This document shows, one piece after another, positions 1 through 59,952 of a stretch of 64,000 nt of DNA. The DNA lies in the NCBI GenBank assembly GCA_027592325.1, contig JAQCKO010000001.1:20247-84246 (forward strand), written 5' to 3'. The stretch is from a bacterium. GTDB lineage: Bacteria > Patescibacteriota > Patescibacteriia > UBA9934. Made by a program: the position numbers and the translations under genes. The notes beneath the pieces are model-generated. The model saw only the letters and a list, made by a program, of their open reading frames with translations, was not told the origin of the DNA and searched no databases. The first letter of the stretch is position 1. Each line of letters starts with the position of its first letter.

Positions 1-313
1 ATGTGCCACCATTCGCGCCAGAACATCGTTCTCAAAGGAGGTGTCGGGATTCAAAAGCAATACATAATCCCCATCTGATCGTTTCATCCCTTGATTGACG
101 GCTGCAGCAAATCCTCGATTTTCTGGATTTGGCATATAGATCGCGCCGTATTTCGCTGCGAGCTCCTCGGTTTCTTGCCGCCCAGCATTATCGACGATAA
201 TCAACTCGTAATTGATTCCTTCAGAAACTTCTACTGAAGAAAAGCAGTCTCGCAGAACATGAAGATCTTCTTTATAGGTGACAACAATAATCGATAAGTC
301 GAGCGGTTTCATA
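1..313 (-). CDS. Family 2 glycosyltransferase, 3'-truncated at the window edge (start codon at 313)
   Basis: Minus-strand translation from ATG at 313 reads MKPLDLSIIVVTYKEDLHVLRDC...IIVDNAG...DGDYVLLLNPD, the GT2 N-terminal Rossmann signature. It overlaps the upstream gene stop by 4 nt. Absent from the ORF track because it runs off the window. Confidence 0.6.
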
Positions 314-1010
314 ATTGATGTTTCTTTTTGATGAGTTTCTTTGCGGCTTCGTATTTTTGAATGGCTTTTGGCATGAATCCTAGGCGTTTCCAAGGGATTT
401 TATACGCAATTTTCGGCATCCATTGTGTTCCTATACGCGACGCACCATCAATACGTGCTTTGTACAAATACTCTGGCACGCAAATTCCTGTTTTTCCTTC
501 TGCGAGCATTGTGAGCCATAAATCCCAGTCTTGCAAGCGCCTAACACTTTCATCAAAGCCTGGGAAATCCTCTGCACGAATAAGAGAAGTAGTGTGAATA
601 AAATTTGTGCTCTTTAATTGCTCTTCATCAAACGCAAGAGGCTTGAAGCGCTTCCCCCCAAAATAGAATCCACTATACGCATAACTTGCCGTGCTCGATG
701 TGAGAGCCACTAGCATCTTCTTAAGCGCATACGGTTTCATAACAATGTCTGCATCAACGAAAATGAAATAGTCGCCGGTTGCTGATTTTGCTCCTCTATT
801 CCGCGCGAAATTAGACCCCTGGTTATCTTGATGAATAGCTGTAAGCCGATTTTCGTATACCTCGAGCACTTTTTTTGTACTATCTGTTGATCCATCATCA
901 ACCACAATGATCTCAAGATCAACCCCCTCTTGTACGAGAAGGCTGTCAATACACGCAGGGAGACTTGTAGCATGCTGATACGTTGGAATAATCGCTGAAA
1001 TTTTAGGCAT
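309..1010 (-). CDS. Family 2 glycosyltransferase
   Basis: 233 aa. N-terminus ISAIIPTYQHATSLPACIDSLLVQ...VVDDGSTD is the classic GT2 fold with DxD. Confidence 0.85.
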   Translation of the reverse strand: MPKISAIIPTYQHATSLPACIDSLLVQEGVDLEIIVVDDGSTDSTKKVLEVYENRLTAIHQDNQGSNFARNRGAKSATGDYFIFVDADIVMKPYALKKMLVALTSSTASYAYSGFYFGGKRFKPLAFDEEQLKSTNFIHTTSLIRAEDFPGFDESVRRLQDWDLWLTMLAEGKTGICVPEYLYKARIDGASRIGTQWMPKIAYKIPWKRLGFMPKAIQKYEAAKKLIKKKHQL

Positions 1011-2097
1011 AGCGCTTTATTATTCGCTCGAGCTTTGAAAAGACGCGTTCAGATGTAAATTGCTGCGATCGTTCATGTCCTCTGCGGCCGAGTTGTTGTC
1101 GTCGATCTGGATTCTGAACGAGCTGCTGAAGCCGCTCAACAAGCTCCTCATCATTCTGTACCAGATACCCTGTCTCGCCATCAAGAATTGCCTCTGAAAC
1201 GCCCGGATGGTTGAATCCGACGACGGGAAGCCCAAAATACCCGGCTTCAATATAAACCATCCCAAAGCCTTCCCTGTCTGCTTCAGATTTTGTTGTTGGC
1301 ATGACGAATACATCTGCTGATTGATACGCCTTCACAAGCTCAACATCATCTAACATGCCCGTAAACGTCACGCGGTGATCTATCCCAAGCTTGTGAGCTA
1401 TTGCCTCAAGCCTTGGTTTATCCTCACCATCCCCAGCGATGGTATAGTGGACGTTTTTGAGCATTGGGAGCAGGTTCAACACCCGATCAACCCCTTTTCG
1501 CTCAACAAGACGACATGCGGTGAGCAGGTGAATACTGGTATTTTTATCAGCAACACCTTCGTCATCCGTCCGAAGGCAGGCGGTCATCGAATGACAATCG
1601 ACAAGTGCTGGATTCCCACCTTCGCTGGAATGACGAATCAACGGATTGGATTCGATCAATTCCGAACTCAGCGGCGGATACACAACCATCGGTTTTTCAT
1701 CCTTAGCGAATGCTGCAATTTCATTCGCGAGCGCGTGCGAATTCGTCACAATAAGTTTCGCAGACCAGATGATCCACTTTAGGATCATTCGTCGCCACCA
1801 CGAACGGCGTGCAAGATCAAAATCCATGCCATGAAAAATGAGTACATATGGTGTTCGAGTAACGTATCGCGCAATCATGGCCGCAAATCCAAGTGGATAC
1901 ACATGCGAAATAATGAGAAGGCGTGATGTATGCGCTACCTTTACCACCCAAACAAGTGCCCCTAAAAAACGTGGTGTTTTTGGCCGATAATCAACATCAA
2001 TCGACTGCGCGTAAACGCGGATAAGCTCGGAAAGATACCGAGCAACTCCTCCCTTTTGCGGTGCGTAATCGACAGTTAAGAGACGAATACGTTTCAT
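1003..2097 (-). CDS. Family 1 (GT4-type) glycosyltransferase
   Basis: 364 aa. C-terminal EADREGFGMVYIEAGYFGLPVVGFNHPGVSEAILDGETGYLV is the GT-B retaining glycosyltransferase motif. Confidence 0.85.
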   Translation of the reverse strand: MKRIRLLTVDYAPQKGGVARYLSELIRVYAQSIDVDYRPKTPRFLGALVWVVKVAHTSRLLIISHVYPLGFAAMIARYVTRTPYVLIFHGMDFDLARRSWWRRMILKWIIWSAKLIVTNSHALANEIAAFAKDEKPMVVYPPLSSELIESNPLIRHSSEGGNPALVDCHSMTACLRTDDEGVADKNTSIHLLTACRLVERKGVDRVLNLLPMLKNVHYTIAGDGEDKPRLEAIAHKLGIDHRVTFTGMLDDVELVKAYQSADVFVMPTTKSEADREGFGMVYIEAGYFGLPVVGFNHPGVSEAILDGETGYLVQNDEELVERLQQLVQNPDRRQQLGRRGHERSQQFTSERVFSKLERIIKRYA

Positions 2098-3530
2098 AGC
2101 TTTTTACGAATCAGTAAACGAAGTTGATTCATCTCATTTTTACGGATCGCCCCAAAAACAAATAGCATTACCGGATACACCACACAACCAATAATAATTC
2201 GTAGAAGAACCGGCACGAATGGTGCGAGTAGATAAACAGAAAGCCCCATTGTTAGCCCCGCAAGAACGATGGACCCAATTGTTTTCAAGAGTTGACCCAC
2301 AGAAAATGTCGTGGTCTTTTGCATGACCACCCAATCGACAATGAGCATGAATGCAAAACTTCCAAGTGCCGCGATGCTCGCCCCCGTAATCCCGAATATG
2401 GGAATGAGAACAAGATTAAACACAATATTTAACACCATGGTGGCCGCTCCAATAACCGTCTTGGTCATTTGCCGATCATTACTGTTAAGAAGTGAACCAA
2501 TCGGAAAATCAAGAAAAATGAATAGCAGGACAAAAATTAAAACCTGCAATGGGAGAACCGAGTCAAGAAATGCATCTGAGTACACAAGTGTAATAAGATC
2601 TGGTGCAATTGCCCAAATACCAAACACGATCGGGACTCCAATAAGGGCTAAGTACCAAAATGCGGATGTGAGCTGTTTTTTTAGTTGATCCTGATTTCCT
2701 GCTGCCTCGCTCATTGCGGGGTAAAGTGCAGCGACAAATGCAAGAGGAAGAAATTGAAAAGCATAGGTGAGTTTATAGGCAACGGCATACACACCAACCG
2801 CAGCCTCCCCCATCAGCTGATTTAAAATAAAGCTGTCAACATATGAATAGACTTTCACGAACACGGCGGCAAGAAAAAAGGCAAATGCGGGCTTAAGTGG
2901 CTGAAGGCCTCGTTTCCAGCTTGGAATGAAGGCATGAAACCCAATCCGTCTTCCAAGCATACCAGCCGAAAAAGCAAGGTTCCAACTACTCCCCACGGCA
3001 AGGGCGATCACAAGCAAAGGAAGTGTGGCTGCCCCCGTCAGAAGAAACATCCCACCCACGATGGCTGTCATGGTTTGGCCTATGAAAATACCCAAAGATT
3101 CATAGCGAAGATCGCCTAGGCCGCGAAGGAGGCCAAAAAACGTCAACGATAGTGAATCAGCAATAAGGACAATCAGTCCAATACGTGCAAGAACAAAAAG
3201 CTCCGCAGACATTCCTGGAAACAGGACAGGTAATAAGAGGACAAAGAGAATGGTGAGCGGAATGGTCACGCACTTTACACCGAGAATGAGTTGCGTCCAT
3301 TCTTCTACTTTCACCTTTTGCTTAGCAACTTCACGAATGGCAACCGACGTGAGGCCAATATCATCAAAAACAGCGATAATGGTGATAATGGCAAGGGCGA
3401 GAAAATACACCCCAGTCCCCTCCTGACCAAAAAACCGTGCCACCAGTGCGAAATACACAAATGCAATGGCCTTTTGTCCAACAGATGCAATCGTTAAATA
3501 GAACGTGTTTCGTGCCAAAACCGATGCCAT
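2094..3530 (-). CDS. Polysaccharide/oligosaccharide flippase (Wzx-like, MOP superfamily)
   Basis: 478 aa, about 12-14 predicted TM helices, typical MOP/Wzx topology. Adjacent to glycosyltransferases and overlaps its neighbour by 4 nt. Confidence 0.75.
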   Translation of the reverse strand: MASVLARNTFYLTIASVGQKAIAFVYFALVARFFGQEGTGVYFLALAIITIIAVFDDIGLTSVAIREVAKQKVKVEEWTQLILGVKCVTIPLTILFVLLLPVLFPGMSAELFVLARIGLIVLIADSLSLTFFGLLRGLGDLRYESLGIFIGQTMTAIVGGMFLLTGAATLPLLVIALAVGSSWNLAFSAGMLGRRIGFHAFIPSWKRGLQPLKPAFAFFLAAVFVKVYSYVDSFILNQLMGEAAVGVYAVAYKLTYAFQFLPLAFVAALYPAMSEAAGNQDQLKKQLTSAFWYLALIGVPIVFGIWAIAPDLITLVYSDAFLDSVLPLQVLIFVLLFIFLDFPIGSLLNSNDRQMTKTVIGAATMVLNIVFNLVLIPIFGITGASIAALGSFAFMLIVDWVVMQKTTTFSVGQLLKTIGSIVLAGLTMGLSVYLLAPFVPVLLRIIIGCVVYPVMLFVFGAIRKNEMNQLRLLIRKKL

Positions 3531-3594
3531 AATATGTCTATATTAGTTGATTTTGGACGTAGAAGCAAGGTGGATGAACACATCATTAATCCGT

Positions 3595-3619
3595 GTCATT
3601 CCTGCGAAGGCAGGAATCC
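3595..3619. repeat. Copy of dispersed palindromic hairpin repeat H1 (GTCATTCCTGCGAAGGCAGGAATCC)
   Basis: Near-identical copies in inverse orientation at 45818-45841 and 53359-53386; a variant at 63602-63638. Confidence 0.7.
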
Positions 3620-3674
3620 AACGAATCAAATTTGGCACACGCTAGACCCAGTGTAATCCCGGGGTGGCTAACAG

Positions 3675-3725
3675 ATCCCTCACATTCGTTCGGGAATTAC
3701 GAATTCTCGAGCCTCACGAGAGGTC
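3675..3725. repeat. Inverted pair of the R2 repeat unit (GATCCCTCACATTCGTTCGGGAATT / GAATTCTCGAGCCTCACGAGAGGTC)
   Basis: The left half is the reverse complement of the R2 unit AATTTCTCGAACGAATGTGAGAGATC seen at 61209-61234 and 63641-63666. The right half resembles the copy at 59953-59977. Confidence 0.6.
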
Positions 3726-3812
3726 GATTTGCATTCAATACAAAAACCCACTCCTGCGAGTGAGTCTTTGTATTGAAGCTCGATTGTTAATTGCTATTTC
3801 AGCTGTCCGCGA

Positions 3813-3845
3813 AAATCGATTATTTCGACGGGAAATAATCGATTT
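3813..3845 (-). terminator. Perfect 14-bp stem hairpin downstream of rpsI (AAATCGATTATTTC-GACGG-GAAATAATCGATTT), likely operon terminator
   Basis: A perfect inverted repeat directly after the last gene of the ribosomal cluster. The U-tract on the minus strand is short (TT), so the call is moderate. Confidence 0.45.
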
Positions 3846-3866
3846 GCAGCGCATCTGGAAAACAAT

Positions 3867-4265
3867 TTAACGCTTGCGCCACTGACGTGAGCGACGAGCC
3901 CCACGAAGTCCGAATTTTTTTCGTTCCTTGATGCGTGCATCGCGACTAAGGTAACCCTTTGTCTTAAGAGCGGTTTTGAAGGCATCATTTTCCTTCACGA
4001 GCGCACGTGCAATTCCGAGCTTTACTGCATCAGATTGCCCGCGCATACCTCCTCCGATTGCACGCACGGATACATCAACGCTATCCATGCGACCAACTTC
4101 CTGAAGCGGAAGAAGAGCATTATTGCGCTCCGTTTCGAGTTTAAAATACTCTTTCACCTCACGCCCGTTGACCGTAACCTTCCCAGATCCACCTGGGTAA
4201 ATACGTACCTGTGCAATTGCTGATTTACGACGTCCAAGTGCCTGGATGTATGTGGTTTCTGGCAT
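3867..4265 (-). CDS. rpsI: 30S ribosomal protein S9
   Basis: 132 aa ending ...KRKFGLRGARRSRQWRKR. The uS9 C-terminal signature. Confidence 0.95.
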   Translation of the reverse strand: MPETTYIQALGRRKSAIAQVRIYPGGSGKVTVNGREVKEYFKLETERNNALLPLQEVGRMDSVDVSVRAIGGGMRGQSDAVKLGIARALVKENDAFKTALKTKGYLSRDARIKERKKFGLRGARRSRQWRKR

Positions 4266-4266
4266 A

Positions 4267-4632
4267 CTATACGGTAATCTTAAGGCGACTTAGACGCTCC
4301 TTTCGAAGCTTATTTTTTGGAAGCATACGGCTCACCGCTGCTTCTAGCACCATGGCTGGGCTTTGCTCAAAAAGATCTTTGAGTGATCGAGCCTTGATTC
4401 CACCTGGCCATCCTGTATGGCGGTAGTAAATCTTTTGTTCCATTTTATTGCGGCCGCTGAACGTCATTTTCCCGACATTTTCAACTTCTACGACATCACC
4501 GATATCCTGATTTGGGACATAGTCTGCACGATGCTTCCCAATGAGATGTGTTGCGATATCAGTAGCAAGTCGCCCAAGTGGTTGACCTGCAGCATTGACC
4601 TTATAGGTCTCGCGTGTGAATTGCTTATCCAT
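4267..4632 (-). CDS. rplM: 50S ribosomal protein L13
   Basis: 121 aa. The conserved rplM-rpsI pair. Confidence 0.93.
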   Translation of the reverse strand: MDKQFTRETYKVNAAGQPLGRLATDIATHLIGKHRADYVPNQDIGDVVEVENVGKMTFSGRNKMEQKIYYRHTGWPGGIKARSLKDLFEQSPAMVLEAAVSRMLPKNKLRKERLSRLKITV

Positions 4633-4633
4633 A

Positions 4634-4984
4634 TTAGACGAGTTCGAGCTTTACAACCTCGGCTCCATCTCCTTTGCGAGGTCCCATCTTAACAATGCGG
4701 GTGTATCCTCCTTCACGATCTTTGTACTTTGGACCAATGACATCCATAAGCTTATTCACTGGCTGCTCTGTTGTGAAGAATGCAAGAAGCTGACGGCGCG
4801 CCGCGAGATTCCCTTTCTTCGCCTTTGTGATAAGCTTCTCAACCACAGGCTTCACGGCTTTCGCCTTACCTTGCGTTGTTTGAATGCCATCATAGACGAT
4901 GACACTCGTAGCGAGGTCGCGAAGAAGCGCTTTTCGCGCACTTCGGCTTCGCCCGAGCGTTTTTGTTGTATTTCGGTGGCGCAT
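4634..4984 (-). CDS. rplQ: 50S ribosomal protein L17
   Basis: 116 aa. Immediately downstream of rpoA, as in the alpha operon. Confidence 0.93.
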   Translation of the reverse strand: MRHRNTTKTLGRSRSARKALLRDLATSVIVYDGIQTTQGKAKAVKPVVEKLITKAKKGNLAARRQLLAFFTTEQPVNKLMDVIGPKYKDREGGYTRIVKMGPRKGDGAEVVKLELV

Positions 4985-4985
4985 A

Positions 4986-5741
4986 TTATTCCGTCTCTTC
5001 TTCTGAATCTTCGTTTTCCTGACTCTCTAATACTTTCTCAGTCAGAGAAGCGTGAGAGAGTTGTCCTGCAATCCAATTAAAGTGATTGAGGATTGTCTCG
5101 GTTGCCTTTTCAACAGCAGCTTGTGCTGTAACGGTTCCATCAGTGGTAATGTTCATGATTACCTTATCGTAGTTGGTGATTTCTCCAACACGCGTATTCT
5201 CTACTTGAAGTCCTGCAGCAACGACCGGACTGAAAAGTGCATCAACAGCGATGAGTCCGATTTCAGTTGTTGGGACTGTGCGTTCTTCGGTTGGAAGATA
5301 CCCTCGCCCACGTTCGACAGTGATTTCCATTTCGAAATCCGTGTCCGTCGTCAGCGTTGCAAGAACAAGTTCTCCATTAACGATTTCTACATCTGCATTT
5401 TTTTCGAATCCTGATGCCATCACTTCACCTTTCTTTTTTTGTGAAAGCGTAAGAACAACAGGATCATCACTATGCACAATCATGCGTAGTTTCTTAAGGT
5501 TCAAGATAATGCTAAGTACATCTTCTTTTACCCCTTCAACACCCATAAATTCGTGCTGAGCACCTTTGATTTTTACCGCCGTTACCGCCGCTCCTTCAAG
5601 TGAAGAAAGCAAAACACGGCGCAGGGCGTTTCCGATTGTGGTTCCATAGCCATGATGAAGTGGCTCAATCGTGAGGATTGATTCGTTTTCGTGTTCACCA
5701 TCGGTGAAGACCATCTTTGAGGGAAGCAAAATATTCTCCAT
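4986..5741 (-). CDS. rpoA: DNA-directed RNA polymerase alpha subunit, N-terminal domain only (no alpha-CTD)
   Basis: 251 aa. A full alpha-NTD (dimerisation and beta/beta' contact region) ends ...ILNHFNWIAGQL, followed only by an acidic tail ESQENEDSEEETE. rplQ starts 2 nt later, so there is no room for a CTD. Confidence 0.88.
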   Translation of the reverse strand: MENILLPSKMVFTDGEHENESILTIEPLHHGYGTTIGNALRRVLLSSLEGAAVTAVKIKGAQHEFMGVEGVKEDVLSIILNLKKLRMIVHSDDPVVLTLSQKKKGEVMASGFEKNADVEIVNGELVLATLTTDTDFEMEITVERGRGYLPTEERTVPTTEIGLIAVDALFSPVVAAGLQVENTRVGEITNYDKVIMNITTDGTVTAQAAVEKATETILNHFNWIAGQLSHASLTEKVLESQENEDSEEETE

Positions 5742-5749
5742 AGGGTACG

Positions 5750-6373
5750 TTATCGTGAGTAAAACTCGATAATAAGTTTTGGATCGTAGACCTCTTTCAG
5801 ATCTTCCCCTTCAGGACGTCCCACCACAGTACCTTTGAATGCTCCTTTTTCTAGGTGAAGCCATCCTGGAACTGTGTGTGATTTTGCTCGTTCCTCCATA
5901 TCGGCGAATAGGCCTTTTTTACGCTTATTCTCTCGCACCTCGATTACATCGTCAACTCGAAGCTGGTAAGAAGGGATATTGACCTTCTTTCCGTTTACGA
6001 GGAACATGGCATGACTCACCATTTGTCTTGCCTGTGCACGCGTTTTTGCAAATCCAAGTCGGAATACGGCGTTGTCGAGGCGAGATTCAAGCATGTGCGC
6101 AAGATTCTCTCCAGTGTTCCCAGGAGCCGCAGAAGCCTTTTCGAAATAATTACGAAATTGGCGCTCCATGATGCCATAAATACGCTTTGCTTTCTGCTTT
6201 TCGCGAAGCTGAATCGCATAAACTGAAAGACGTGGATGACGCGCACGTGGACCACCATGTTCTCCAGGAACATATGGACGCCGCTGCATCGTTTTAAGAA
6301 CGCTTTCGCTTGTCGAGAGCGCAACGCCATCGCGTCGGCTCATCTTTGTTAGATGTTTTTGTGTCTTACCCAT
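5750..6373 (-). CDS. rpsD: 30S ribosomal protein S4
   Basis: 207 aa. uS4 family (N-terminal ARY-like region plus S4 RNA-binding domain). Confidence 0.93.
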   Translation of the reverse strand: MGKTQKHLTKMSRRDGVALSTSESVLKTMQRRPYVPGEHGGPRARHPRLSVYAIQLREKQKAKRIYGIMERQFRNYFEKASAAPGNTGENLAHMLESRLDNAVFRLGFAKTRAQARQMVSHAMFLVNGKKVNIPSYQLRVDDVIEVRENKRKKGLFADMEERAKSHTVPGWLHLEKGAFKGTVVGRPEGEDLKEVYDPKLIIEFYSR

Positions 6374-6381
6374 ACCTCACG

Positions 6382-6897
6382 TTATACACGTCGAGCGCGG
6401 CGTGGCCGGCACCCATTATGCGGCACTGGTGTGCGCTCTTTAATTCCTGTAATGCTAAATCCTTTTGCGTTTAGCGAGCGAATTGCAGCATCTTTACCGT
6501 TTCCAATTCCGGTTACGTAAACCATAAGTTCACGGACACCGTAGCGCTCAAGCGCATCTGCAATATCATTTACAACCACTCCGGCTGCATATGGTGTTGC
6601 TTTCTTTGGCCCTTTGAATCCACATTTTCCAGAGCTTGACCATGCAATAATATTTCCATGAGGGTCAGCGACAGAAATAATGGTGTTGTTAAGGCTTGCA
6701 AAAACATAGGCATTTCCTTTAGAAACGCTCTTCATGACACGTTTCTTTCCTTTTGCAGAACGAATATACACTTTCTGATTCGTCGCTTTTGCCTTTGATT
6801 CTGCCTTTTTCTCAGACTGCTTCGCGTCATCTGGCGATGTCACTTGAGTCTCATCGGTAGTAGCCTCTACTACCTGAGTTGTTTTCTCTTCACTCAT
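6382..6897 (-). CDS. rpsK: 30S ribosomal protein S11 with an ~40-aa Lys/Glu-rich N-terminal extension
   Basis: 171 aa. The core from ...KKRVMKSVSKGNAYVFASLNNTIISVADPHGN... is uS11. The N-terminal 40 aa are low-complexity. Confidence 0.9.
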   Translation of the reverse strand: MSEEKTTQVVEATTDETQVTSPDDAKQSEKKAESKAKATNQKVYIRSAKGKKRVMKSVSKGNAYVFASLNNTIISVADPHGNIIAWSSSGKCGFKGPKKATPYAAGVVVNDIADALERYGVRELMVYVTGIGNGKDAAIRSLNAKGFSITGIKERTPVPHNGCRPRRARRV

Positions 6898-6903
6898 AAG
6901 CTT

Positions 6904-7290
6904 TTAGGTCTTCGAGACTACGCGGCGACCGCTACCCGCTGTTTGACGAACGTTTCCACGGCGTGTACGAGAATTTGATTTCGTTCGCTGCCCGCGAGCA
7001 GGAAGATTCTTCGCATGGCGATCTCCTCGGTAAGTCCCAATTTCTTGGAGGCGCTTGACATTTCCTAGCACCTCGCGGCGAAGCTCACCTTCTACCTTCT
7101 GCCCTTTTTCTACAAGTGCACGAATAGTGTTCAGTTGATCTTCACTTAAATCTTTTACGCGGGTGCTCATATCGAGCTGCGATTGCGTTACAATGCGCTC
7201 CGCAGTTGTATTCCCAATTCCATAAACATACGTAAGTGCTATGACTACGCGTTTATTAGATGGAAGGGTAACTCCAGCAATACGTGCCAT
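6904..7290 (-). CDS. rpsM: 30S ribosomal protein S13
   Basis: 128 aa, MARIAGVTLPSNKRVVIALTYVYGIG. Confidence 0.95.
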   Translation of the reverse strand: MARIAGVTLPSNKRVVIALTYVYGIGNTTAERIVTQSQLDMSTRVKDLSEDQLNTIRALVEKGQKVEGELRREVLGNVKRLQEIGTYRGDRHAKNLPARGQRTKSNSRTRRGNVRQTAGSGRRVVSKT

Positions 7291-7292
7291 AA

Positions 7293-7406
7293 TTATCCTT
7301 GTCGTTGCTTATGTCGAGGGTTTTTGCAGACAACGTGTACGCGCCCTTTTCGGCGAATAACGCGGCAATCTCGACAGCGTTTTTTAACTGATGCTTGTAC
7401 TTTCAT
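7293..7406 (-). CDS. rpmJ: 50S ribosomal protein L36
   Basis: Not in the ORF track (too short). Minus-strand translation gives [37 protein letters not shown] (37 aa), the zinc-ribbon bL36 consensus, in the expected infA-rpmJ-rpsM position. Confidence 0.85.
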
Positions 7407-7625
7407 AAGTCATCATGGATTAGATACGTCGAAATCATCCTCTTAAAAGAAGGATGATGTCGTCTTAAGTTCGCATGCCTTACATCCACGTGTCTCAACA
7501 CGTTGATTTTAGTGTCAGATAATCGATGCAGTTTTGGTGAATCGCGATGCGCGGAGCGAGCCGTACTAGAACGTACGGTGAGCGAGCACAGCAGCGATGA
7601 GCCGAAAATGCACGATTATATGGCG

Positions 7626-7841
7626 CTAAAATCTGTAAGTGATGCGGCCTTTTGTGAGATCATAAGGACTAATCTCAACTTTGACGTCATCGCCAGGCAT
7701 AATACGAATTCGGAATTTTCGCAATTTTCCTGACAGATGAGCGATAATTTCTTGGCCTCCGTCAAGTACCACTCGGAACTTGCCGGCAGGAAGAGCTTCT
7801 TCAACTCTTCCTCTTGCCTCGATGAAATCTTTTTCTGCCAT
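7626..7841 (-). CDS. infA: Translation initiation factor IF-1
   Basis: Internal Met of the 96-aa track [74 protein letters not shown] (71 aa) is a full-length S1-fold IF-1. Confidence 0.85.
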
Positions 7842-7960
7842 AAGTGCGAGAAGTCTAACAAATTCAGGCGCTTCTGGCAAGAACAATTTGGATGAAATCC
7901 GCCGGAAGTGTACCAAAATGGGGAAAATAAGTCAAATTGCACTGTGTCTGGATTGTAATC

Positions 7961-7989
7961 TTGACGTTTGAGAAGAAAACCCGTATATT
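7961..7989 (+). promoter_or_regulatory. Near-consensus sigma70-type promoter (TTGACG-17 nt-TATATT) for the 8037 gene
   Basis: -35 TTGACG at 7961-7966, 17-nt spacer, -10 TATATT at 7984-7989. GAGG RBS 5 nt before the ATG at 8037. Confidence 0.5.
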
Positions 7990-8036
7990 TAATCGTCACA
8001 AAACGGTGGATACCCCACCCGGTGACCTGAGGAAAA

Positions 8037-8474
8037 ATGCCCGCTGAAGAATGCCTGAAGGCTACACGTGATCTTGCCAAGCAGATCAGGCGGGTCACTG
8101 GCCTAAAGTCCCAATTTGCGGAAACGGACACGGGAACCGTCATCGTCTTCACCCATACGGGTACGACCGGGCTCGATCTACAGTTGGAACCTCAGCATCA
8201 TGGTGACGATTCTACGAGGATGAGTATCATGATCCGCGTCACCTGCAACGGCGAGTTCATGCACGCATACGTGAGCGTCTCGCCGGAGGGAGATTTCACC
8301 TGCATCGGTGAGGGTGGATGCGGTCATTCAACGGACGATTTTCCGGATGAGTTGTCCGACATGTTCGATGATCAGCCACACGACGCAGACGGTGTGAGGG
8401 AGGAGATCGAGCGCTCCGTCGGGGTCTGGTTGGACTACGGCAACCAAACGCCGAGCAATCTCGCATACACCTAG
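8037..8474 (+). CDS. Hypothetical Cys-containing protein in the GC-rich islet
   Basis: 145 aa. Own promoter and RBS. Local GC ~55-58% against ~45% in flanks. No family recognisable by eye. A CxxxxC-like TCIGEGGCGHS segment is present. Confidence 0.5.
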   Translation: MPAEECLKATRDLAKQIRRVTGLKSQFAETDTGTVIVFTHTGTTGLDLQLEPQHHGDDSTRMSIMIRVTCNGEFMHAYVSVSPEGDFTCIGEGGCGHSTDDFPDELSDMFDDQPHDADGVREEIERSVGVWLDYGNQTPSNLAYT

Positions 8475-8494
8475 CCCGGCGCTGGGCTGCTAGA

Positions 8495-8532
8495 CGCGCT
8501 TCCGACACACGGTCGGAGGCGCGTTTTCTCTT
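8495..8532 (+). terminator. Rho-independent terminator after the 8037-8474 gene
   Basis: GCGCTTCCGAC-ACAC-GGTCGGAGGCGCG stem-loop followed by TTTTCTCTT. Confidence 0.55.
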
Positions 8533-8616
8533 GTATAAGCGAAAGCGCCCACATCTCTGCAGGCGCCACGAGCTATTCAACGAGTACGAACTTGAAGTCG
8601 TCATCTGGAACACGGG

Positions 8617-9123
8617 CTAGGGCGTCGAGAAAACAGCGAGAACAGTGCCCCGTTTGAGAGCCTCGACAGTAAGCGTCGAGCCCCTCGGTACACGGGCGAC
8701 GTTTTCGAAAACGCTGACGGCGCGAAGAACCATCGACGTCTTCGTACCCGCGTCATTAGGCATCTGGAGGGTGATGCGAACGCTGCCCACAACCACCAGG
8801 AGCACCTTATCCTTCGTTTTGTGGTAGTGATCTCCTGCCGGCATCCCAATACGCTTTCCGCGTAGCATCGCGATCTGATCTTGGATCCATCCACGCACCC
8901 CAGGTCGCCCCTCAAAGACGACATAGTAGACGACATGGATTGTCTCAACTGGCACTCCCATGATATCGGCAATCACGGAAAGATGAGTCTGCACCAGATA
9001 GCGACCTGGCTTCGATCCATCTGGTGGAATCTGAAAAGACATTTGCTGCATGACACGAACCTCCCCGCGAAAACCTAGCAAAACAAATTGTAAATGACAA
9101 ACGCTGGATCCTGCAGTCCTCAC
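8617..9123 (-). CDS. Hypothetical protein, possibly cupin-like (GC-rich islet); the true start may be Met25 at 9051
   Basis: 168 aa. G-x5-HYH-x3-D-x6-G (IGMPAGDHYHKTKDKVLLVVVG) approximates cupin motif 1. Convergent with the 8037 gene. GC-rich. Confidence 0.4.
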   Translation of the reverse strand: MRTAGSSVCHLQFVLLGFRGEVRVMQQMSFQIPPDGSKPGRYLVQTHLSVIADIMGVPVETIHVVYYVVFEGRPGVRGWIQDQIAMLRGKRIGMPAGDHYHKTKDKVLLVVVGSVRITLQMPNDAGTKTSMVLRAVSVFENVARVPRGSTLTVEALKRGTVLAVFSTP

Positions 9124-10893
9124 CTACCCTAAAATTGCCTTAATGCGCCGAACACCGGCTGATGACGCTTCCTCTTTTTTGATTTTAAATCCGCCGAGTT
9201 CGCTTGTGCGTTCAACGTGTGGGCCGCCGCAAATTTCAGACGAAAAGTCCCCGATGAAATAGACTTTTATCTTCCCGCCCATTTGCGCGTATTTATCTTC
9301 AAACAGTCCAATCGCTCCGCGTGCCTTTGCCTCTTCTACGGTAAGCAGCTCATGGTGAATTGGCAAATCACTGCCGATTTGCTCGTTCACAATGCGTTCT
9401 ACCTCTTCTATCTGTTCAGGCGTCATTTTTTCTCCATGCGAAAAATCAAATCGGAGCCGCTCACGAGTGATATTACTTCCGCGCTGCTCAACATGATCGC
9501 CAAGAACCGTTCGAAGCGCTTGATGCAATAAATGCGTCGCGGTATGCAGACGAGTCGATTCCGCAGAGTGATCAACAAGCCCTCCTGCAAACTTCTCGCC
9601 TGACCCATCGCGTGAGGTCTCTTGATGTTTTTTAAATTCTGCTTCAAATGCCGCATGGTCAACAGATTGACCATGCTCACGCGCAATCTCTTCGGTCAGC
9701 TCGAGCGGAAATCCAAAGGTTTGATACAAGTCAAATGCATCTGTTCCTGACAGCTGTCCCTTCTTTTCGTAAAGCTTCTCTACTTCACGAAGACCTTTGT
9801 TTAAACTTGTAGCAAATTTTTGTGCTTCTTTCTGAATTTCATCGGTAATCTCTCCCTGATTCGTCCGAAGTTCAGGGTAACCATCCTCAAGCGTGCCGAT
9901 GGTCATATGCACAATACTCGTCAAATCTTTATGCTCACCAGAAATTTTGAGCATTTGGCGTACGGCACGTCGAATCAGCCGGCGCAGAATGTAACCCTGA
10001 TCTTTATTTGATGGGCGCACGCCATCTGAAATCATCATAGTTGCTGCGCGAATATGGTCAGAAATAATGTACAGAGCACGCATGACTTCCACTGTTTCTT
10101 CTGGATTGCCGGAAATAGTTGAAATCTCGGTCAATATCGGCTGGAAGAGCTCGGTCTCATAGACGCTAGCTTTTCCTTGTAAAATAGCCGCCGTACGTTC
10201 AAGCCCCATTCCGGTATCAACATTTCTTTGGGCTAGCGGCGTGAGTACCCCGTCATCCCCCTTATAAAATTGCATAAACACATTATTCCAAATCTCCACC
10301 CAAAGATTGTTTTCTGGATCGAACTTCTCAGGCGCTTCTTCTTCCCCTGTCCAATAAAAAATTTCGGTATCCGGCCCCTGTGGTCCTGTGTGTTTTCCGC
10401 CTGCTGGCCACCAATTGTCATCTTTACCAAGCTTCGCGATGCGCGCATCTGGCACACCTAGCTGAATCCAAAGATTATACGCTTCTTCATCGAAAGGCGC
10501 ATCGTCGTCGCCCGCGAATACACTGACTGCTAAATGATTTGGTGAAATTGCTAGCCATTCCGTTGATGTCAAGAATTCATAACTCCAACGAATAGAATCT
10601 TCTTTAAAATAATCACCAAGTGACCAATTTCCTAGCATCTCAAAAAACGTAAGATGTGTTGCATCTCCTACCTCGTCAATATCACCCGTACGAATACATT
10701 TTTGACTATCCGTAAGCCGATTTCCTGATGGATGCGTTTCGCCCATCAAAAATGGCACCAATGGATGCATGCCCGCCGTTGTAAACAACACCGATGGATC
10801 ATTTTCAGGCACAACCGAAGCAGAAGGAATTTCTGCATGTCCTTTTGATACAAAGAATTCTATAAATTTTCGGCGGAGTGCACTTGCTGTCAT
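9124..10893 (-). CDS. alaS: Alanine--tRNA ligase, compact form lacking the C-terminal C-Ala/oligomerisation domain
   Basis: 589 aa. Class II catalytic core (FTTAGMHPLVPF..., GNWSLGDYFK), and editing-domain metal motifs HTATHLLH and CGGPHV near the C-terminus. Ends about 280 aa short of canonical ~870-aa AlaRS. Confidence 0.88.
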   Translation of the reverse strand: MTASALRRKFIEFFVSKGHAEIPSASVVPENDPSVLFTTAGMHPLVPFLMGETHPSGNRLTDSQKCIRTGDIDEVGDATHLTFFEMLGNWSLGDYFKEDSIRWSYEFLTSTEWLAISPNHLAVSVFAGDDDAPFDEEAYNLWIQLGVPDARIAKLGKDDNWWPAGGKHTGPQGPDTEIFYWTGEEEAPEKFDPENNLWVEIWNNVFMQFYKGDDGVLTPLAQRNVDTGMGLERTAAILQGKASVYETELFQPILTEISTISGNPEETVEVMRALYIISDHIRAATMMISDGVRPSNKDQGYILRRLIRRAVRQMLKISGEHKDLTSIVHMTIGTLEDGYPELRTNQGEITDEIQKEAQKFATSLNKGLREVEKLYEKKGQLSGTDAFDLYQTFGFPLELTEEIAREHGQSVDHAAFEAEFKKHQETSRDGSGEKFAGGLVDHSAESTRLHTATHLLHQALRTVLGDHVEQRGSNITRERLRFDFSHGEKMTPEQIEEVERIVNEQIGSDLPIHHELLTVEEAKARGAIGLFEDKYAQMGGKIKVYFIGDFSSEICGGPHVERTSELGGFKIKKEEASSAGVRRIKAILG

Positions 10894-10935
10894 ATTATGT
10901 TCAAATTATCGTATATCACCTGTTTTATCAAGGGA

Positions 10936-12552
10936 TTATGCATCAACTCCAGAAAGTATCGCCTCCTCTGGTTTTGCCTTTTTTCGCACACGTCGCTCAA
11001 GTCCCACAAGAATAGACAATAGCTCCTCAGCACGAAGAACGTACAAAAGCGCTATATAAACAATAAACGCAAGGCTACCAGCGAATAACCCCTGGCCAAA
11101 TACACCCCAGAAGGTATTTAGTGTGAAACCGAGCGTTTCGGTGGCAATTGTTTTAAAGCCTTGTAATGATCCTGCTGTCACAATTCCCGCAATACTGAAT
11201 TTAATGAGTGCATTCAACACATCACTAAATCCATCTGCCTTTATGCGCGATGAAAGCAAGGCAAAAAGCGCAATCGCCTGTAGTACAGCAGACCCTGAGT
11301 ATGCGATTGCGATACCCTGAATCTGATAATGAGGAGTTAATAATAGTGCTGATGCAATGAATATTGTTGTACTCATAAGGCCAACAATAAACGGCGTCAT
11401 GGAATCATTCTTTGCAAAAAATGCTCTGACAAGAAGAAAAATGAGCCCATGTGCAATCAGACCCATCACAAGCCAACCCATCACATTGGCTGTTTGAATG
11501 GTCTCGGCCCAATCGTACGCACCAGCGCCAACAGCGACACGGACAATTTGCATACGGAGGCCATAGAAGAGAATGGTTGCAGGCACCATAAAAAGGAGCA
11601 TCTGTCGCATGGTAAGTGAAAGGATATCGCGAAAGTCTGCTGTGTCTCGTTTCCCTGCCTTTTCGCAAAGTGATGGAAACGCTGCGATGGCATAAGAAAC
11701 ACCGATAACACCAAGGGGGAAAAAGAATATATTATACGCAAATTGCAGCATGGTCACGGCGCCAACCGTGAGTGTAGATGCTATCGCTGTCATCGCAAGT
11801 AGATTCACCTGCCCTATGGCAAGACCCATCACGCGAGGTGGGAGGTGCCCCGCAATATAGCGAAGCGATGCGTCTCGAAAACGAAAAAGCAACCTGTACC
11901 GGTATCCAACAGCATATAGTCCGATAAGTTGAATCATGAGGTGAAAAAACGCCCCGCCGATCACACCAAATGCAAGCCCATTCAATCCAAATATTGGTAC
12001 GAGAAAAATTGATCCCAAAATGATTCCGAGATTGTAAAAAATAGGGGCAATAGCATACGGGAGAAAAACTTTTGCCCCCTGAAGCGCAGAACCAATCACC
12101 ATAGACGCTCCTAAAATAAGTTGTGCTACGAGCATGAGGCGTAGAAGCTCGATGACAGCAAGCTGTTTCTCGACGTCAAAACCGGGGGCAATGACATCAA
12201 CAAATACAGGAGCCATGATTGCAACAACAACCAGTAGCCCCGAGAAAATGACAGTGAGAATGGTGAGTGTATTACTCGTTAAATCCCATGCCTTCTGCTT
12301 GTGTTTTGCATATTCCTTTGTGAAAAGCGGAATGAAGCTTGCCGAGAGCGCCCCCACGACTATGAGCGCATAAAATAGATCAGGAAGTCGAAAGGCCGCA
12401 AAGTAAATATCAAGTTCATCTGATGCCCCGAATTCACCTGCAAGAATGCGATCTCGAATCAGCCCCACGATGCGCGATAAAATCGAAAAGAAGGCAACCA
12501 AAAATGCGGCGCTTGTAACCGTTCTTGCTGACCGTGATAATGCTTGCCTCAT
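10936..12552 (-). CDS. murJ: Lipid II flippase MurJ (MviN family)
   Basis: 538 aa, 14 TM. N-terminal ...ILSRIVGLIRDRILAGEFGASDELDIYFAAFRLP is the MurJ signature. Confidence 0.85.
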   Translation of the reverse strand: MRQALSRSARTVTSAAFLVAFFSILSRIVGLIRDRILAGEFGASDELDIYFAAFRLPDLFYALIVVGALSASFIPLFTKEYAKHKQKAWDLTSNTLTILTVIFSGLLVVVAIMAPVFVDVIAPGFDVEKQLAVIELLRLMLVAQLILGASMVIGSALQGAKVFLPYAIAPIFYNLGIILGSIFLVPIFGLNGLAFGVIGGAFFHLMIQLIGLYAVGYRYRLLFRFRDASLRYIAGHLPPRVMGLAIGQVNLLAMTAIASTLTVGAVTMLQFAYNIFFFPLGVIGVSYAIAAFPSLCEKAGKRDTADFRDILSLTMRQMLLFMVPATILFYGLRMQIVRVAVGAGAYDWAETIQTANVMGWLVMGLIAHGLIFLLVRAFFAKNDSMTPFIVGLMSTTIFIASALLLTPHYQIQGIAIAYSGSAVLQAIALFALLSSRIKADGFSDVLNALIKFSIAGIVTAGSLQGFKTIATETLGFTLNTFWGVFGQGLFAGSLAFIVYIALLYVLRAEELLSILVGLERRVRKKAKPEEAILSGVDA

Positions 12553-45085: not shown

Positions 45086-45862
45086 TTACGGCAACTTTTT
45101 CACAGACTTCTGAAGCCGTTTCATCTCGGCACGTTTTTCTTCTATTCCGGCCATAATCTTGTCTGCATGCTTTGGACGTTCAAGGTTTTTTTGCGTATAG
45201 GGACAGGCATCGGCAATGGGACATGCCCAGCAGCGTGGATTTTTTATACAGATATACCGTCCAAATGGCACAAACACCTGATTTACAATACGTTTATTCT
45301 CGTCTGGAATAAGCTCAAGAAGTTGTGTCTCGGTTGATGCAGGTGTGTGAGATTTCACCCATCCAAGACGTTTTGTGACCCGATGGACATGCGTATCAAC
45401 GGCAATTGCAGGCTTGTTAAATGCATACGGTAAGAGAACACTAGCCGTTTTACGTCCAACCCCTGGAAGCTGTATCAATTCCTCCATAGTCTTCGGCACT
45501 TCCCCGCCAAATGTATCGCAGAGCATAATGCCAAGTGCCACCAAATGCGTTGCTTTTTGACGAAACATACCAATGCTTGAGATATACGGAAGAATCTCTT
45601 CTTTTGATGCCCCTGCAAGCGCATGTGCGTCGGGAAATCGATCAAATAATGCCGGTAGTAGTTTCAAGACCTGTTCATCCCGCGTTCTTGCAGAAAGAAG
45701 AACAGCTACCAAACATTGATAGCTATTTCCAATCGCAAGCCCGCCCTGTTCTGGAAACGCCTTTTTCAGTCGATTAAGAACGTCGATCACGATTTCTTGT
45801 TGATTCTCGCTTCGATTGATTCCTGCCTTGGCAGGAATGACGAATTTCTGATGCTGAGCCAT
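45086..45862 (-). CDS. nth: Endonuclease III (HhH-GPD with 4Fe-4S cluster) carrying a ~40-aa basic C-terminal extension
   Basis: LLSARTRDE ... LPGVGRKTASVLL ... CxxxxxxCxxCxxxxxC (CIKNPRCWACPIADACPY). Confidence 0.85.
   Translation of the reverse strand: MAQHQKFVIPAKAGINRSENQQEIVIDVLNRLKKAFPEQGGLAIGNSYQCLVAVLLSARTRDEQVLKLLPALFDRFPDAHALAGASKEEILPYISSIGMFRQKATHLVALGIMLCDTFGGEVPKTMEELIQLPGVGRKTASVLLPYAFNKPAIAVDTHVHRVTKRLGWVKSHTPASTETQLLELIPDENKRIVNQVFVPFGRYICIKNPRCWACPIADACPYTQKNLERPKHADKIMAGIEEKRAEMKRLQKSVKKLP
45818..45855. repeat. H1 hairpin repeat copy (GATTCCTGCCTTGGCAGGAATGA) plus partial R2 (CGAATTTCTGATG)
   Basis: See the repeat families. Confidence 0.6.
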
Positions 45863-46882: not shown

Positions 46883-48471
46883 TATAACAAACTGGTTCCT
46901 GTCATCTGCGGAGGCTTCTTAATCCCCATCGATTCGAGAATTGTCGGTGCAATATCAGCAAGCATGCCAACGGGTGGTAACATCGACAGATCCCCGTTTG
47001 GGACATCGCCAGAAAGTCCTGGCCGACCTTCTAAATGATTCGCAATCACCCAAAATGGAACTGGATTCGTGCTATGTTCTTTGTCACGCTCCCCTGTCTG
47101 TACATTCATCACCTCTTCCGCATTTCCATGATCCGCCGTAATAAACACCACTCCATTTTTCTCAAGTGTTTTTTTTACAATTGTTCCAAGACATTCATCG
47201 GTAACTTTCATTGCCTCAAGCGTGGCTTCATAATTTCCTGTATGCGCAACCATGTCCGGATTCGCGAAATTAATCGCTATAAAATCGTAATTGTCTGTTT
47301 CAATTTGGCGCACAACTTCTGCCGTCATTTCTCGCGCTGACATCTCTGGTTGTTCATCGTAGTTTGCAACATTTGGTGATGGAATAATTTTTCGGTCCTC
47401 GGCCGGAAATGGTTTTTCATGCGCCCCATTCAAGAAAAACGTTACATGAGCATATTTTTCTGTTTCTGCAATGTGCAATTGCGTCATTCCTGCTTTTGAA
47501 ATCACCTCTGCAAGCGTATTTTCAAGAAACACCGGTGGATACGCGACGGTAACCGGAAGTCCCGTTTCATATTCAGTCATGGTGATAAACGGGACATTTT
47601 TCATGTAAGCACGATCAAACGCGTCAAAGCCTGGCATCACAAATGCCTTCGTTATTTGCCGCGCACGGTCAGGACGAAAGTTAAAGAAGATTACCACATC
47701 TCCTTCATTGACGGTTGCAATGGGTTTGCCGCGTTTGGTCATGACGGTTGGCAAAAATTGCTCATCATACACCTCTTTGGCGTACGATGCCTTAATCGCT
47801 TCTATTGGATCTTCCGCTACCACTGCTGACTCCCCAAGCGCAATGGCACGATACGCTCTTTGCGTGCGGTCCCAGCGCGTATCCCTATCCATTGCATAGT
47901 AACGGCCTGAAAGGGTTGCAATCTCCCCAATGCCAATATCATCCATCTGTGTGATGAGTTCTGAAACAAATTCAAGGCCTGAATTATAAAGGGTATCACG
48001 ACCGTCAAGAATTGGATGCACGGCAACACGCTTGAGGCGTTTTTTCTTCGCCATGCGTAAAATTTCATAGCAATGCCGATTCGCTCCATGCACATTCCCA
48101 GACGACATAATACCCATCACATGCAGCGTGCCCTTGGTTTGCTTCACATGCTTCAATGCTGAAAGGATCGCCTCATTCTCGTAAAAGGCGCGCGATTCAA
48201 TATCACGTTCAATCCGAGGAAGCGACTGATAGTAAACGCGACCAGCTCCAATGGTCAAATGACCTACTTGTGAGTTTCCCATCTCGCCCCACATGAGTCC
48301 GACAGTCTCCCCCGATGCCCGCAACGTCATGGTTGGATAGCGCTTGATAAAACTGTCGATATTGGGTGTTTTTGCTCGTGTAACCGCATTGCCCTCTCCA
48401 TCTGGCGCAACACCAAGCCCGTCACAAACAATTAATACTGCCGGTCGTGGACGTTGATTTGCATTTGACAT
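46882..48471 (-). CDS. gpmI: 2,3-bisphosphoglycerate-independent phosphoglycerate mutase
   Basis: 529 aa. N-terminal VLIVCDGLG. iPGM metalloenzyme architecture. Confidence 0.9.
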   Translation of the reverse strand: MSNANQRPRPAVLIVCDGLGVAPDGEGNAVTRAKTPNIDSFIKRYPTMTLRASGETVGLMWGEMGNSQVGHLTIGAGRVYYQSLPRIERDIESRAFYENEAILSALKHVKQTKGTLHVMGIMSSGNVHGANRHCYEILRMAKKKRLKRVAVHPILDGRDTLYNSGLEFVSELITQMDDIGIGEIATLSGRYYAMDRDTRWDRTQRAYRAIALGESAVVAEDPIEAIKASYAKEVYDEQFLPTVMTKRGKPIATVNEGDVVIFFNFRPDRARQITKAFVMPGFDAFDRAYMKNVPFITMTEYETGLPVTVAYPPVFLENTLAEVISKAGMTQLHIAETEKYAHVTFFLNGAHEKPFPAEDRKIIPSPNVANYDEQPEMSAREMTAEVVRQIETDNYDFIAINFANPDMVAHTGNYEATLEAMKVTDECLGTIVKKTLEKNGVVFITADHGNAEEVMNVQTGERDKEHSTNPVPFWVIANHLEGRPGLSGDVPNGDLSMLPPVGMLADIAPTILESMGIKKPPQMTGTSLL

Positions 48472-48493
48472 ACGGGGGCATTATACAGGTTTC

Positions 48494-48706
48494 AAGGCTC
48501 AGAAGACAGGTACCCGTCATTTCTGCAAAGCGGTGGCAGCTAGGCGGAGCCTGGTCCGGTCTGCCCGGCTTCGACGTGGCTCTGCCGGAGAATCCGACGT
48601 TTCTATTATTGCGCCCGCCTGCCCTTAACGAAAGCCCGTCTGACGCGGGCGTGGAAATCTCTCTGATTCGAATCGATCCTTCGACTCACGGCATTCGCTC
48701 AAGATG
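48494..48706 (+). ncRNA. Candidate structured small RNA (GC-rich, multiple stems), class unknown
   Basis: ~210 nt at ~60% GC between gpmI and secF. Preceded by TTGCAT-17-TATACA (48459-48487) and ended by the 48707-48735 terminator. Contains stems GCGCCCGCCTGCCC/GGGCAGG-like and GCCCGTC..GACGCGGGC. Confidence 0.3.
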
Positions 48707-48735
48707 AAAAAAACGCACTGAGTGCGTTTTTTTTA
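48707..48735. terminator. Bidirectional intrinsic terminator (AAAAAAACGCAC-TGAG-TGCGTTTTTTTT)
   Basis: A-run / hairpin / T-run. Terminates secF on the minus strand and any plus-strand transcript from the left. Confidence 0.7.
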
Positions 48736-48759
48736 CGTTCTGATTGTACAAACGATGTT

Positions 48760-53356: not shown

Positions 53357-53358
53357 AA

Positions 53359-53386
53359 GGATTCCTGCCTTCGCAGGAATGACGAA
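53359..53386. repeat. H1 hairpin repeat copy (GGATTCCTGCCTTCGCAGGAATGACGAA)
   Basis: Perfect 9-bp stem with a TTCG loop, between convergent genes. Confidence 0.65.
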
Positions 53387-53411
53387 CAGAGCGTTTTAGC
53401 CTTTATAACCT

Positions 53412-54686: not shown

Positions 54687-54688
54687 AT

Positions 54689-54760: not shown

Positions 54761-54774
54761 ATTCTTCCGCGCAT

Positions 54775-59856: not shown

Positions 59857-59952
59857 GCTCCGTCGTGTCTTGTGTCTCTCACCACCATCATTACAATCTG
59901 CAGGCAGCAATGCGAACAAACATGGTTCATGCTTCGTAAGAAAACGATTTGT

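Follow-up and report, generated by a model that had tools for sequence, protein, structure and literature searches.

Several short hairpins of nearly the same sequence lie dispersed in a 64-kb stretch of DNA (the window), and the question is what kind of element they are and how they came to be there. By Pfam and NCBIfam searches of about 68 open reading frames (ORFs) and by the names of homologues, the window is part of a genome of the Patescibacteria (candidate phyla radiation, CPR) and contains ribosomal protein genes, genes for peptidoglycan synthesis, SecA/SecDF genes and a type IV pilus cluster. A preliminary description of the hairpins, here called H1, had likened them to repetitive extragenic palindromes (REPs) and bacterial interspersed mosaic elements (BIMEs). 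Our analysis points to a more specific identity. H1 is probably a member of the family of DNA hairpins to which the Neisseria Transformation Sequence (NTS), its dRS3 core and the Ssn-related motifs (SRMs) belong, that is, the sites of small Ssn-type nucleases. To this explanation as a whole, comprising family membership, function as a DNA-level element and deposition by such an element, we assign a joint probability of roughly 0.8. It does not amount to a new kind of system, and the new points are modest.

The copies were identified with a covariance model (R1) built from an alignment of 120 distinct copies, all from other genomes, and searched over the window with the filters off. Exactly four sites were found with E-values of 1.6e-6 or lower and none other below E = 1e-5, the E-values being rough, as they come from a short model calibration. 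The orientation beginning with GTCAT scored about 20–29 bits above the reverse, which reached 14–16 bits. Copy A (3595–3619, + strand) is intact and contains the exact 25-mer GGATTCCTGCCTTCGCAGGAATGAC as the reverse complement (43.4 bits, E 1.7e-8, model span 3591–3622). It reads (T)GTC-ATTCCTGC-GAAG-GCAGGAAT-CC and folds as single-stranded DNA (ssDNA) with −8.7 kcal/mol (z −4.1). Copy C (53359–53383, − strand), also intact, is an exact match as well (40.6 bits, E 8.3e-8, model span 53356–53387, fold −7.7 kcal/mol) and reads (C)GTC-ATTCCTGC-GAAG-GCAGGAAT-CC on the − strand. Copy B (45817–45841, − strand) has an intact stem, the loop CAAG and one mismatch to the 25-mer (36.5 bits, E 8.4e-7, model span 45814–45845). 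Copy E (1610–1634, − strand) is partly decayed, with three mismatches to the 25-mer (35.4 bits, E 1.6e-6, model span 1607–1638) and with one mismatch and one G-T pair in the stem. In 100 dinucleotide-preserving shuffles the search for the 25-mer returned no match.

Copies A, B and C share a perfect 8-bp stem, ATTCCTGC/GCAGGAAT, and a loop of 4 nucleotides (nt), which on the strand starting with GTCAT is GAAG (A and C) or CAAG (B) and on the opposite strand CTTC or CTTG; as ssDNA they fold with −6.8 to −8.7 kcal/mol (z −3.4 to −4.1). The perfect stem had been described correctly, but not the tetraloop, which had been given as TTCG and is CTTC/GAAG (CTTG/CAAG at 45817). Likewise three of the four copies first listed are confirmed, the one at 3595–3619 with its exact ends, while 45818–45841 has to be extended to 45817–45841 and 53359–53386 shortened to 53359–53383; the fourth, at 63602–63638, is not recovered by the model, and copy E had been overlooked. 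A scaffold in ENA (L203), identical to positions 1–12097 of the window, runs 9 kb further beyond the window start and carries one more H1 copy adjoining the 3′ end of fmt, which brings the number to five copies in about 73 kb. These 73 kb are all that was seen of the genome, and our statements on presence or absence refer to this span.

A full-text literature search with the core sequence led us to a study of the NTS (PMC11893778, Nat Commun 2025). The NTS, CGTCATTCCCGCGMAVGCGGGAATCYRG, extends the dRS3 palindrome ATTCCC-N8-GGGAAT; SsnA, a GIY-YIG protein of 94 amino acids, binds and cuts it only as ssDNA and on one strand only. For binding, the C that follows the palindrome matters most, and cleavage depends on the trinucleotide preceding the palindrome (PMC11893778). 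In Neisseria, Ssn helps to limit recombination of transforming DNA, and ssn genes of many phyla have NTS-like SRMs on their flanks. Binding and cleavage of ssDNA in a strand-specific manner have been demonstrated only for the Neisseria and Wolbachia proteins on their own repeats (PMC11893778). The window copies have the form (Y)GTC-ATTCCTGC-GAAG-GCAGGAAT-C and differ from the NTS mainly by one compensatory stem pair, C-G having become T-A. In the model alignments the GTC, the palindrome and the 3′ C are kept in all four copies.

The stem is maintained as a structure across genomes. Among the 120 aligned copies 98.6% of the stem cells are paired and five of the eight pairs change on both sides; none of 500 shuffles reached the observed values, and slid registers pair only 22–47%. 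The variable pair that sets the window copies apart from the NTS is U-A in 67 copies, C-G in 46 and an unpaired combination in 3. A position table of 142 copies shows furthermore that the conservation is oriented and reaches unpaired positions. At position −1 there is a T or a C. In the loop, 96% of the copies have G as the first base and 97% have A as the third. The C directly after the stem was fixed by the search pattern; of the two positions behind it, the first is C (70%) or T (30%) and the second mostly A (81%). Read on the GTCAT strand, many loops resemble GNRA tetraloops (GAAA, GCAA, GGAA). All hairpin sets were gathered with a pattern allowing three substitutions and thus cover near relatives, very divergent ones being unrepresented.

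The preliminary description had regarded H1 as a likely genome-specific signature. A scan with the exact core GTCATTCCTGCNNNNGCAGGAATC, with one genome per species, returned at least 120 eight-kb blocks from more than 15 phyla and disproves this. Among the matches listed, blocks with the T variant come from Flavobacteriia, Nitrospirota, Chloroflexota, Planctomycetota, Rickettsiales including Rickettsia, Gamma- and Alphaproteobacteria, Omnitrophota, several CPR lineages and a metagenome-assembled genome of the Nanoarchaeota.

In other genomes the T variant is linked to genes for small GIY-YIG nucleases. In locus L084 T-variant hairpins at 844–867 (+) and 1187–1210 (−) bracket a GIY-YIG gene at 876–1178, and the same inverted bracket surrounds a GIY-YIG ORF in locus L093, the ORFs encoding 96–100 amino acids. 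With the GIY-YIG protein from a T-variant genome block we fetched 80 metagenomic loci encoding relatives (58–74% identical), and in 68 of them a hairpin of the C or T variant is found within 150 nt of the GIY-YIG gene of about 96 codons. A + copy lies upstream of the gene in 45 of 75 cases (median distance 15 nt) and a − copy downstream in 64 of 78 (median 16.5 nt); the density of hairpins is 5.9 per kb adjoining the gene as compared with 0.79 per kb elsewhere. The two variants, T-A (49) and C-G (85), are mixed at these genes, often at the two ends of one gene, and the polarity around the genes is always inverted with GTCAT outward. Pairs without a gene also face outward most commonly (71 versus 31, 29 and 12 for the other arrangements), and their commonest spacer class is 20–24 nt, corresponding to mini-elements of 60–75 nt; Rickettsia loci (L053) contain elements of 117–128 nt bounded by the same hairpins. 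Solved structures with a sequence match to the linked GIY-YIG protein were not found. In a Flavobacteriaceae bacterium (GF1; L041, 6602–7827) we observed in addition a tandem array of five T-variant hairpins about 300 nt apart in direct orientation, beside a fragment of a GIY-YIG gene with which the block ends.

Several findings speak against assigning H1 to the Ssn-type hairpins. The published SRM pattern gives no match in the window, while C-variant positive controls do match; it fails because the T-A pair sits where the pattern permits only V/S. The window copies have two to five mismatches to the NTS consensus (two in copy E), whereas the published criterion is at most one, and we found no published cleavage test of the T variant. 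No ssn or GIY-YIG gene is present in the 64-kb window, as judged from a six-frame pattern search, tblastn with an Ssn-type protein and Pfam/NCBIfam searches of the approximately 68 ORFs, and none was found in the further 9 kb of L203. The linked proteins of other genomes, about 96 amino acids long, carry only Pfam PF01541 as a family label, the CDD family to be expected for them being cd10448 (GIY-YIG_unchar_3); of the NCBIfam searches one remained sub-threshold (P0241, 20.3 bits at a cut-off of 56.05 bits) and the one with the L093 protein gave nothing. Finally, no polymorphism of empty and filled sites was found for the solo copies, so that we can only infer their mobility.

The genomic sites bear on the strongest of the competing explanations, according to which the hairpins act at the RNA level, as 3′ stabilisers, as processing or termination signals lacking a U-tract or as structures in 5′ untranslated regions. 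Copy A is intergenic. It precedes the start of a Wzx-like flippase gene (2094–3530, −) by 65 nt, in the leader or promoter region of the flippase-glycosyltransferase operon; on its other side is the rpsI terminator with its T-tract (3746–3761), downstream of which copy A lies. Copy C is the sole hairpin in a spacer of 55 nt between the convergent genes 52358–53356 (+, rhodanese/UPF0176) and 53412–54026 (−, O-methyltransferase), both assigned by Pfam, and together with the extra copy by fmt in L203 it makes two copies at convergent 3′ gene ends. These positions would suit an RNA function, as would the stability of the hairpins and the often GNRA-like loop on the GTCAT strand. However, in agreement with the preliminary description, no T-tract follows any H1 copy, and a terminator scan of the region picks other hairpins (3746–3761, 53310–53323). 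The transcribed strand is GTCAT sense for B and E but antisense for A. The location at gene junctions reported previously holds for A and C, but B lies within the ORF for endonuclease III (nth) and E within that for a GT4 glycosyltransferase. An Rfam search of the whole window at gathering thresholds gave only two tRNA-like matches and none at the hairpins. Moreover, copies from different phyla also agree in the unpaired GTC and C flanks, for which a stabilising hairpin of a generic kind would have no use, and SsnA showed no interaction with RNA (PMC11893778). We therefore do not favour the mRNA-stabilising role proposed earlier and consider an RNA-level function unlikely as the main explanation; a secondary RNA effect may exist at individual sites.

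A further alternative is that the hairpins mainly serve a recombinase, of the IS110/Piv type or of a phage, as sites of insertion or attachment. It has a precedent, since the dRS3 repeats of Neisseria are used by a filamentous-prophage recombinase (cited in the introduction of PMC11893778), and it is compatible with the Ssn-type explanation. No recombinase, prophage or insertion sequence adjoins any copy in the window, however. The motif is also rare in viral sequences (33 stretches in a collection of 2.9 million contigs), so that phages do not suggest themselves as carriers. Nor would the close association with GIY-YIG genes be explained. As a principal explanation we regard recombinase targeting as very unlikely.

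The comparison with REPs and BIMEs made in the preliminary description is apt as far as behaviour is concerned: H1 is dispersed, oriented and multi-copy, occurs mostly at gene boundaries and in both orientations, and forms mosaics with other repeat modules. In detail, two of the four copies are extragenic, one inverted pair exists, which lies inside a gene, and mosaics with a second module are found at three sites. This second module, TTCYCGAACGAATGTGAGRGATC, occurs at 3674–3696 (−), 61212–61234 (+) and 63644–63666 (+), three matches where 0.04 are expected, each copy lying at most 55 nt from H1 or an H1-like hairpin in a BIME-like mosaic; among 206 loci fetched it was found only in those of the same organism. 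REPs recognised by REP-associated tyrosine transposases (RAYTs) carry a conserved GTAG-type head. That H1 is a classical REP mobilised by a RAYT encoded elsewhere, as had been proposed, is extremely unlikely, for although short, imperfect to perfect palindromes in multiple, mostly extragenic copies of both orientations and in mosaics resemble such a system, the head of H1 is GTCAT, no RAYT, Y1 (PF01797-type), IS110 or other transposase is encoded by the approximately 68 window ORFs scanned, gap ORFs included, and the gene flanked elsewhere is a GIY-YIG nuclease. H1 is thus REP-like in behaviour and not a RAYT-REP. All three alternatives are weaker than the Ssn-type explanation.

The two copies inside genes deserve closer consideration. 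Copy E lies in the GT4 glycosyltransferase ORF 1003–2097 (−), where it encodes RHSSEGGNP. At a distance of 24 nt we find a decayed inverted partner (1561–1585, +) that is 18/25 identical to H1. This value, like that of the remnant at 61233–61257 described below, was counted by eye and is not a model score; the covariance model does not find the partner at E ≤ 10, and it is the weakest element of the set. Together the two form a 74-nt inverted pair (1561–1634) with the GTCAT ends outward and copy E as its left half, and in a fold of 1555–1650 the halves pair with each other. The 24-nt spacer falls into the commonest size class (20–24 nt) of the gene-less pairs in other genomes. Relative to the closest homologues the protein has an in-frame insertion of 26 amino acids (78 nt, 1570–1647, −) in the interdomain linker, which contains the mini-element. 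The insertion is absent from all 11 aligned homologues, namely P0002 and P0003 (75% and 69% identical) and nine more, and a DNA alignment with the closest relative (L122) agrees. It is situated between the two Pfam domains, and in an AlphaFold2 model residues 154–186 have a predicted local distance difference test score (pLDDT) below 50, between two confidently folded halves. We conclude that 1561–1634 is a decayed mini-element fixed in-frame in the linker of an enzyme.

At the corresponding linker of L122 (1931–1972) the sequence is CGTCATCCTGAGCGAGCGGAGCGAGTCGAAGGATC and the protein RRHPERAERVEGS. The hairpin model gives a weak match there (10.9 bits, E about 1), which may be chance or the trace of an older element; with so weak a score we do not claim an ancestral element at this site.

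Copy B corresponds to codons 8–15 (VIPAKAGI) of the annotated nth ORF (45086–45862, −). Most homologues start at about residue 16–21 of the window ORF, so that the copy is part of an N-terminal extension. In a near-identical strain NCBI likewise places the start at this upstream ATG, and the annotated protein (P0121) begins with MAQHQKFVIPAKAGI. Copy B is either translated as VIPAKAGI or part of the 5′ leader of nth. A syntenic relative (L206) with 53–54% amino acid identity is too diverged to define an insertion boundary, and there is a faint resemblance at this place. Occurrence inside coding regions had been named in the preliminary description as an argument against the repeat family. This applies to half of the four copies, and as both are insertions we do not count them against it.

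Taken together, the Ssn-type explanation would run as follows. Hairpins of the H1 type would be oriented DNA hairpins of 25–28 nt, placed in inverted orientation at the two ends of very short elements that carry the gene of a single-domain GIY-YIG nuclease of about 95 amino acids (Ssn), and the gene-less inverted pairs and solo copies would be derivatives of this minimal selfish unit. They would act at the DNA level. The GTCAT strand, when single-stranded, would fold into the 8-bp hairpin, and a cognate Ssn would bind the stem together with the C just 3′ of it and nick a few nucleotides 5′ of GTC; this ssDNA-specific binding and cleavage is taken from the literature on the Neisseria and Wolbachia proteins and carried over to H1 by analogy. 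Our own results comprise the agreement with the family in sequence and structure, the covariation of the stem, the linkage of the T variant to GIY-YIG genes in other genomes and the in-frame insertion. The window copies would then be solo hairpins and one decayed 74-nt mini-element that such an element left behind, for the most part between genes and in two cases within ORFs at tolerant positions, a protein N-terminus and an interdomain linker. A cognate Ssn would be encoded outside the window in the H1 organism, now or formerly. The window copies may still be substrates of such an enzyme, and the elements presumably spread by an uncharacterised Ssn-dependent mechanism.

A syntenic relative has no H1 copy in 20.7 kb, compared with five in about 73 kb here, which indicates a lineage-specific gain. 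Some further sequences in the window resemble H1 or adjoin it. A possible decayed remnant, GTCACACCTGCGAAGTTAAGGATCC, lies at 61233–61257 (+) and abuts the second repeat module. It matches H1 at 19/25 positions, but its stem is lost, it is not significant by the covariance model and it folds like shuffled sequences (z −1.3). The supposed fourth copy at 63602–63638 (+), described as a variant with an 18-nt loop insertion, is missed by the model even at E ≤ 10. Its sequence agrees with H1 only in TCGTCATTCCTG and CAGGAA, and its stem of 7 bp encloses a long loop. By alignment it is a paralogue, as a direct repeat, of a different local repeat at 61198–61234; its relationship to H1 is unproven and we have not retained it. 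The exact 11-mer GTCATTCCTGC from the 5′ half of H1 is present at 47483–47493 (+) inside the iPGM ORF with no matching 3′ arm, by chance or as a remnant. A third intergenic repeat, GAATTCTCGAGC..GCGAGAG, occurs at 3694–3732 beside copy A and at 59946–59984 upstream of murB; its two copies are 74% identical over 39 nt and contain a short hairpin.

These results replace the vague label REP-like by a specific and testable identity, as putative targets of ssDNA-specific nucleases that form a family described only recently. They show that the T-A stem variant is common and missed by the published search motif, probably extend the family to bacteria of the CPR and document an in-frame insertion of a hairpin pair in the linker of an enzyme. 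For annotation, H1 accounts for the repeated appearance of peptides such as VIPAKAGI and RHS.EGGNP at the ends of ORFs or inside them, and start codons upstream of such hairpins may be artefacts. A literature search for the strings IPAFAGMT, VIPAKAGI and similar ones gave no papers. The H1 organism is believed to depend on DNA uptake, and type IV pilus genes are present in the window. One could speculate that an active Ssn-hairpin system operates in this CPR bacterium, in which an ssDNA nuclease gates incoming or replicating strands and mini-elements remodel proteins in-frame, in the manner of the palindromic elements of Rickettsia. A further part of this speculation concerns numbers: with the T-A variant escaping the published SRM pattern, counts of the family would be much too low for AT-rich lineages (CPR, Rickettsiales, Flavobacteriia). 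We regard this wider proposal as possible though doubtful.

In the course of this work we noticed other features of the window. The two tRNA-like genes found with Rfam are adjacent (54618–54687 and 54690–54761, +; 52.8 and 42.9 bits). Of these, ARAGORN detects the first alone and calls for it an abnormal anticodon of two bases, (gg); by eye this gene has a 6-nt anticodon loop (CCGAC-ATGGCA-GTCGG). The pair possibly represents unusual CPR tRNAs, pseudogenes or an assembly error. A perfect palindrome of 52 nt (AAAAAATGGTAACTCGGTTACCGAAA and its complement, with no spacer) occupies 58506–58557 in a 120-nt gap between the divergent genes 58111–58461 (−) and murC (58582–59856, +). Inverted repeats of 59 nt (61082–61140 and 63741–63799, 88% complementary), both intergenic, bracket a 2.6-kb glyA-folD segment. 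Downstream of the iPGM gene there is a GC-rich intergenic region of 288 nt (48472–48759), which ends in a strong bidirectional terminator-like hairpin (48707–48733) with A and T runs at its flanks. It has no Rfam match better than E 0.15 and is possibly an uncharacterised small RNA. Three proteins have unusual architectures or lengths. A SecD-like protein of 673 amino acids (49664–51685, −) carries a PPIC-type peptidyl-prolyl isomerase domain (residues 247–352) between its SecD P1 subdomains, an unusual fusion. RpoA (4986–5741, −; 251 amino acids) has no match to the C-terminal domain in Pfam and, like alanyl-tRNA synthetase (9124–10893, −; 589 amino acids), is shorter than typical for bacteria.

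It remains to compare H1 with the systems it resembles. From intrinsic terminators it is set apart by the missing T-tract. With the Correia elements (NEMIS) of Neisseria it has in common that these, too, are abundant small inverted-repeat elements at gene boundaries. Correia elements measure about 100–200 bp, have terminal inverted repeats and a TA duplication, are substrates of RNase III as RNA, and have known effects on transcription and RNA processing. Their sequence is unrelated to H1, and nothing Correia-like was seen here.

The mini-element in the glycosyltransferase gene recalls the Rickettsia palindromic elements (RPEs) which, with other miniature inverted-repeat transposable elements, are inserted in-frame in genes (reviewed in PMC10969869). 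In both cases a gene of the housekeeping type has received a palindromic mini-element in-frame, in a linker or on the protein surface, and its ORF is left unbroken. The RPEs, however, are about 100–150 bp long and reside in Rickettsia genes, whereas the H1 element is a single, decayed case of 74 nt in a Patescibacteria host. The resemblance to RPEs is one of behaviour only and does not make H1 an RPE.

With the REP/BIME and RAYT system H1 shares short palindromic repeats that fold as ssDNA hairpins, are dispersed, form mosaic clusters and flank the gene of a nuclease that recognises them. The partner of the H1-type hairpins, however, is a GIY-YIG nuclease and not a HUH/Y1 (IS200/IS605-like) transposase, the head is another one, and the hairpins flank the gene in inverted and not in direct orientation.

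H1 comes closest to the NTS and the SRMs, from which it differs in the T-A stem pair in place of C-G, by which it misses the SRM pattern and the limit of one mismatch for an NTS, in its host, the Patescibacteria being absent from the main text of PMC11893778, in the lack of an ssn gene in 73 kb of its genome and in having two of four copies inside ORFs as compared with 2% reported for N. meningitidis. It agrees with them in the (C/T)GTC head, the 8-bp palindrome ATTCCNGC/GCNGGAAT, the G-rich 4-nt loop on the GTCAT strand and the 3′ C, the inverted arrangement around a GIY-YIG gene of about 95 codons, for H1 in other genomes, and the occurrence in multiple, mostly extragenic copies.

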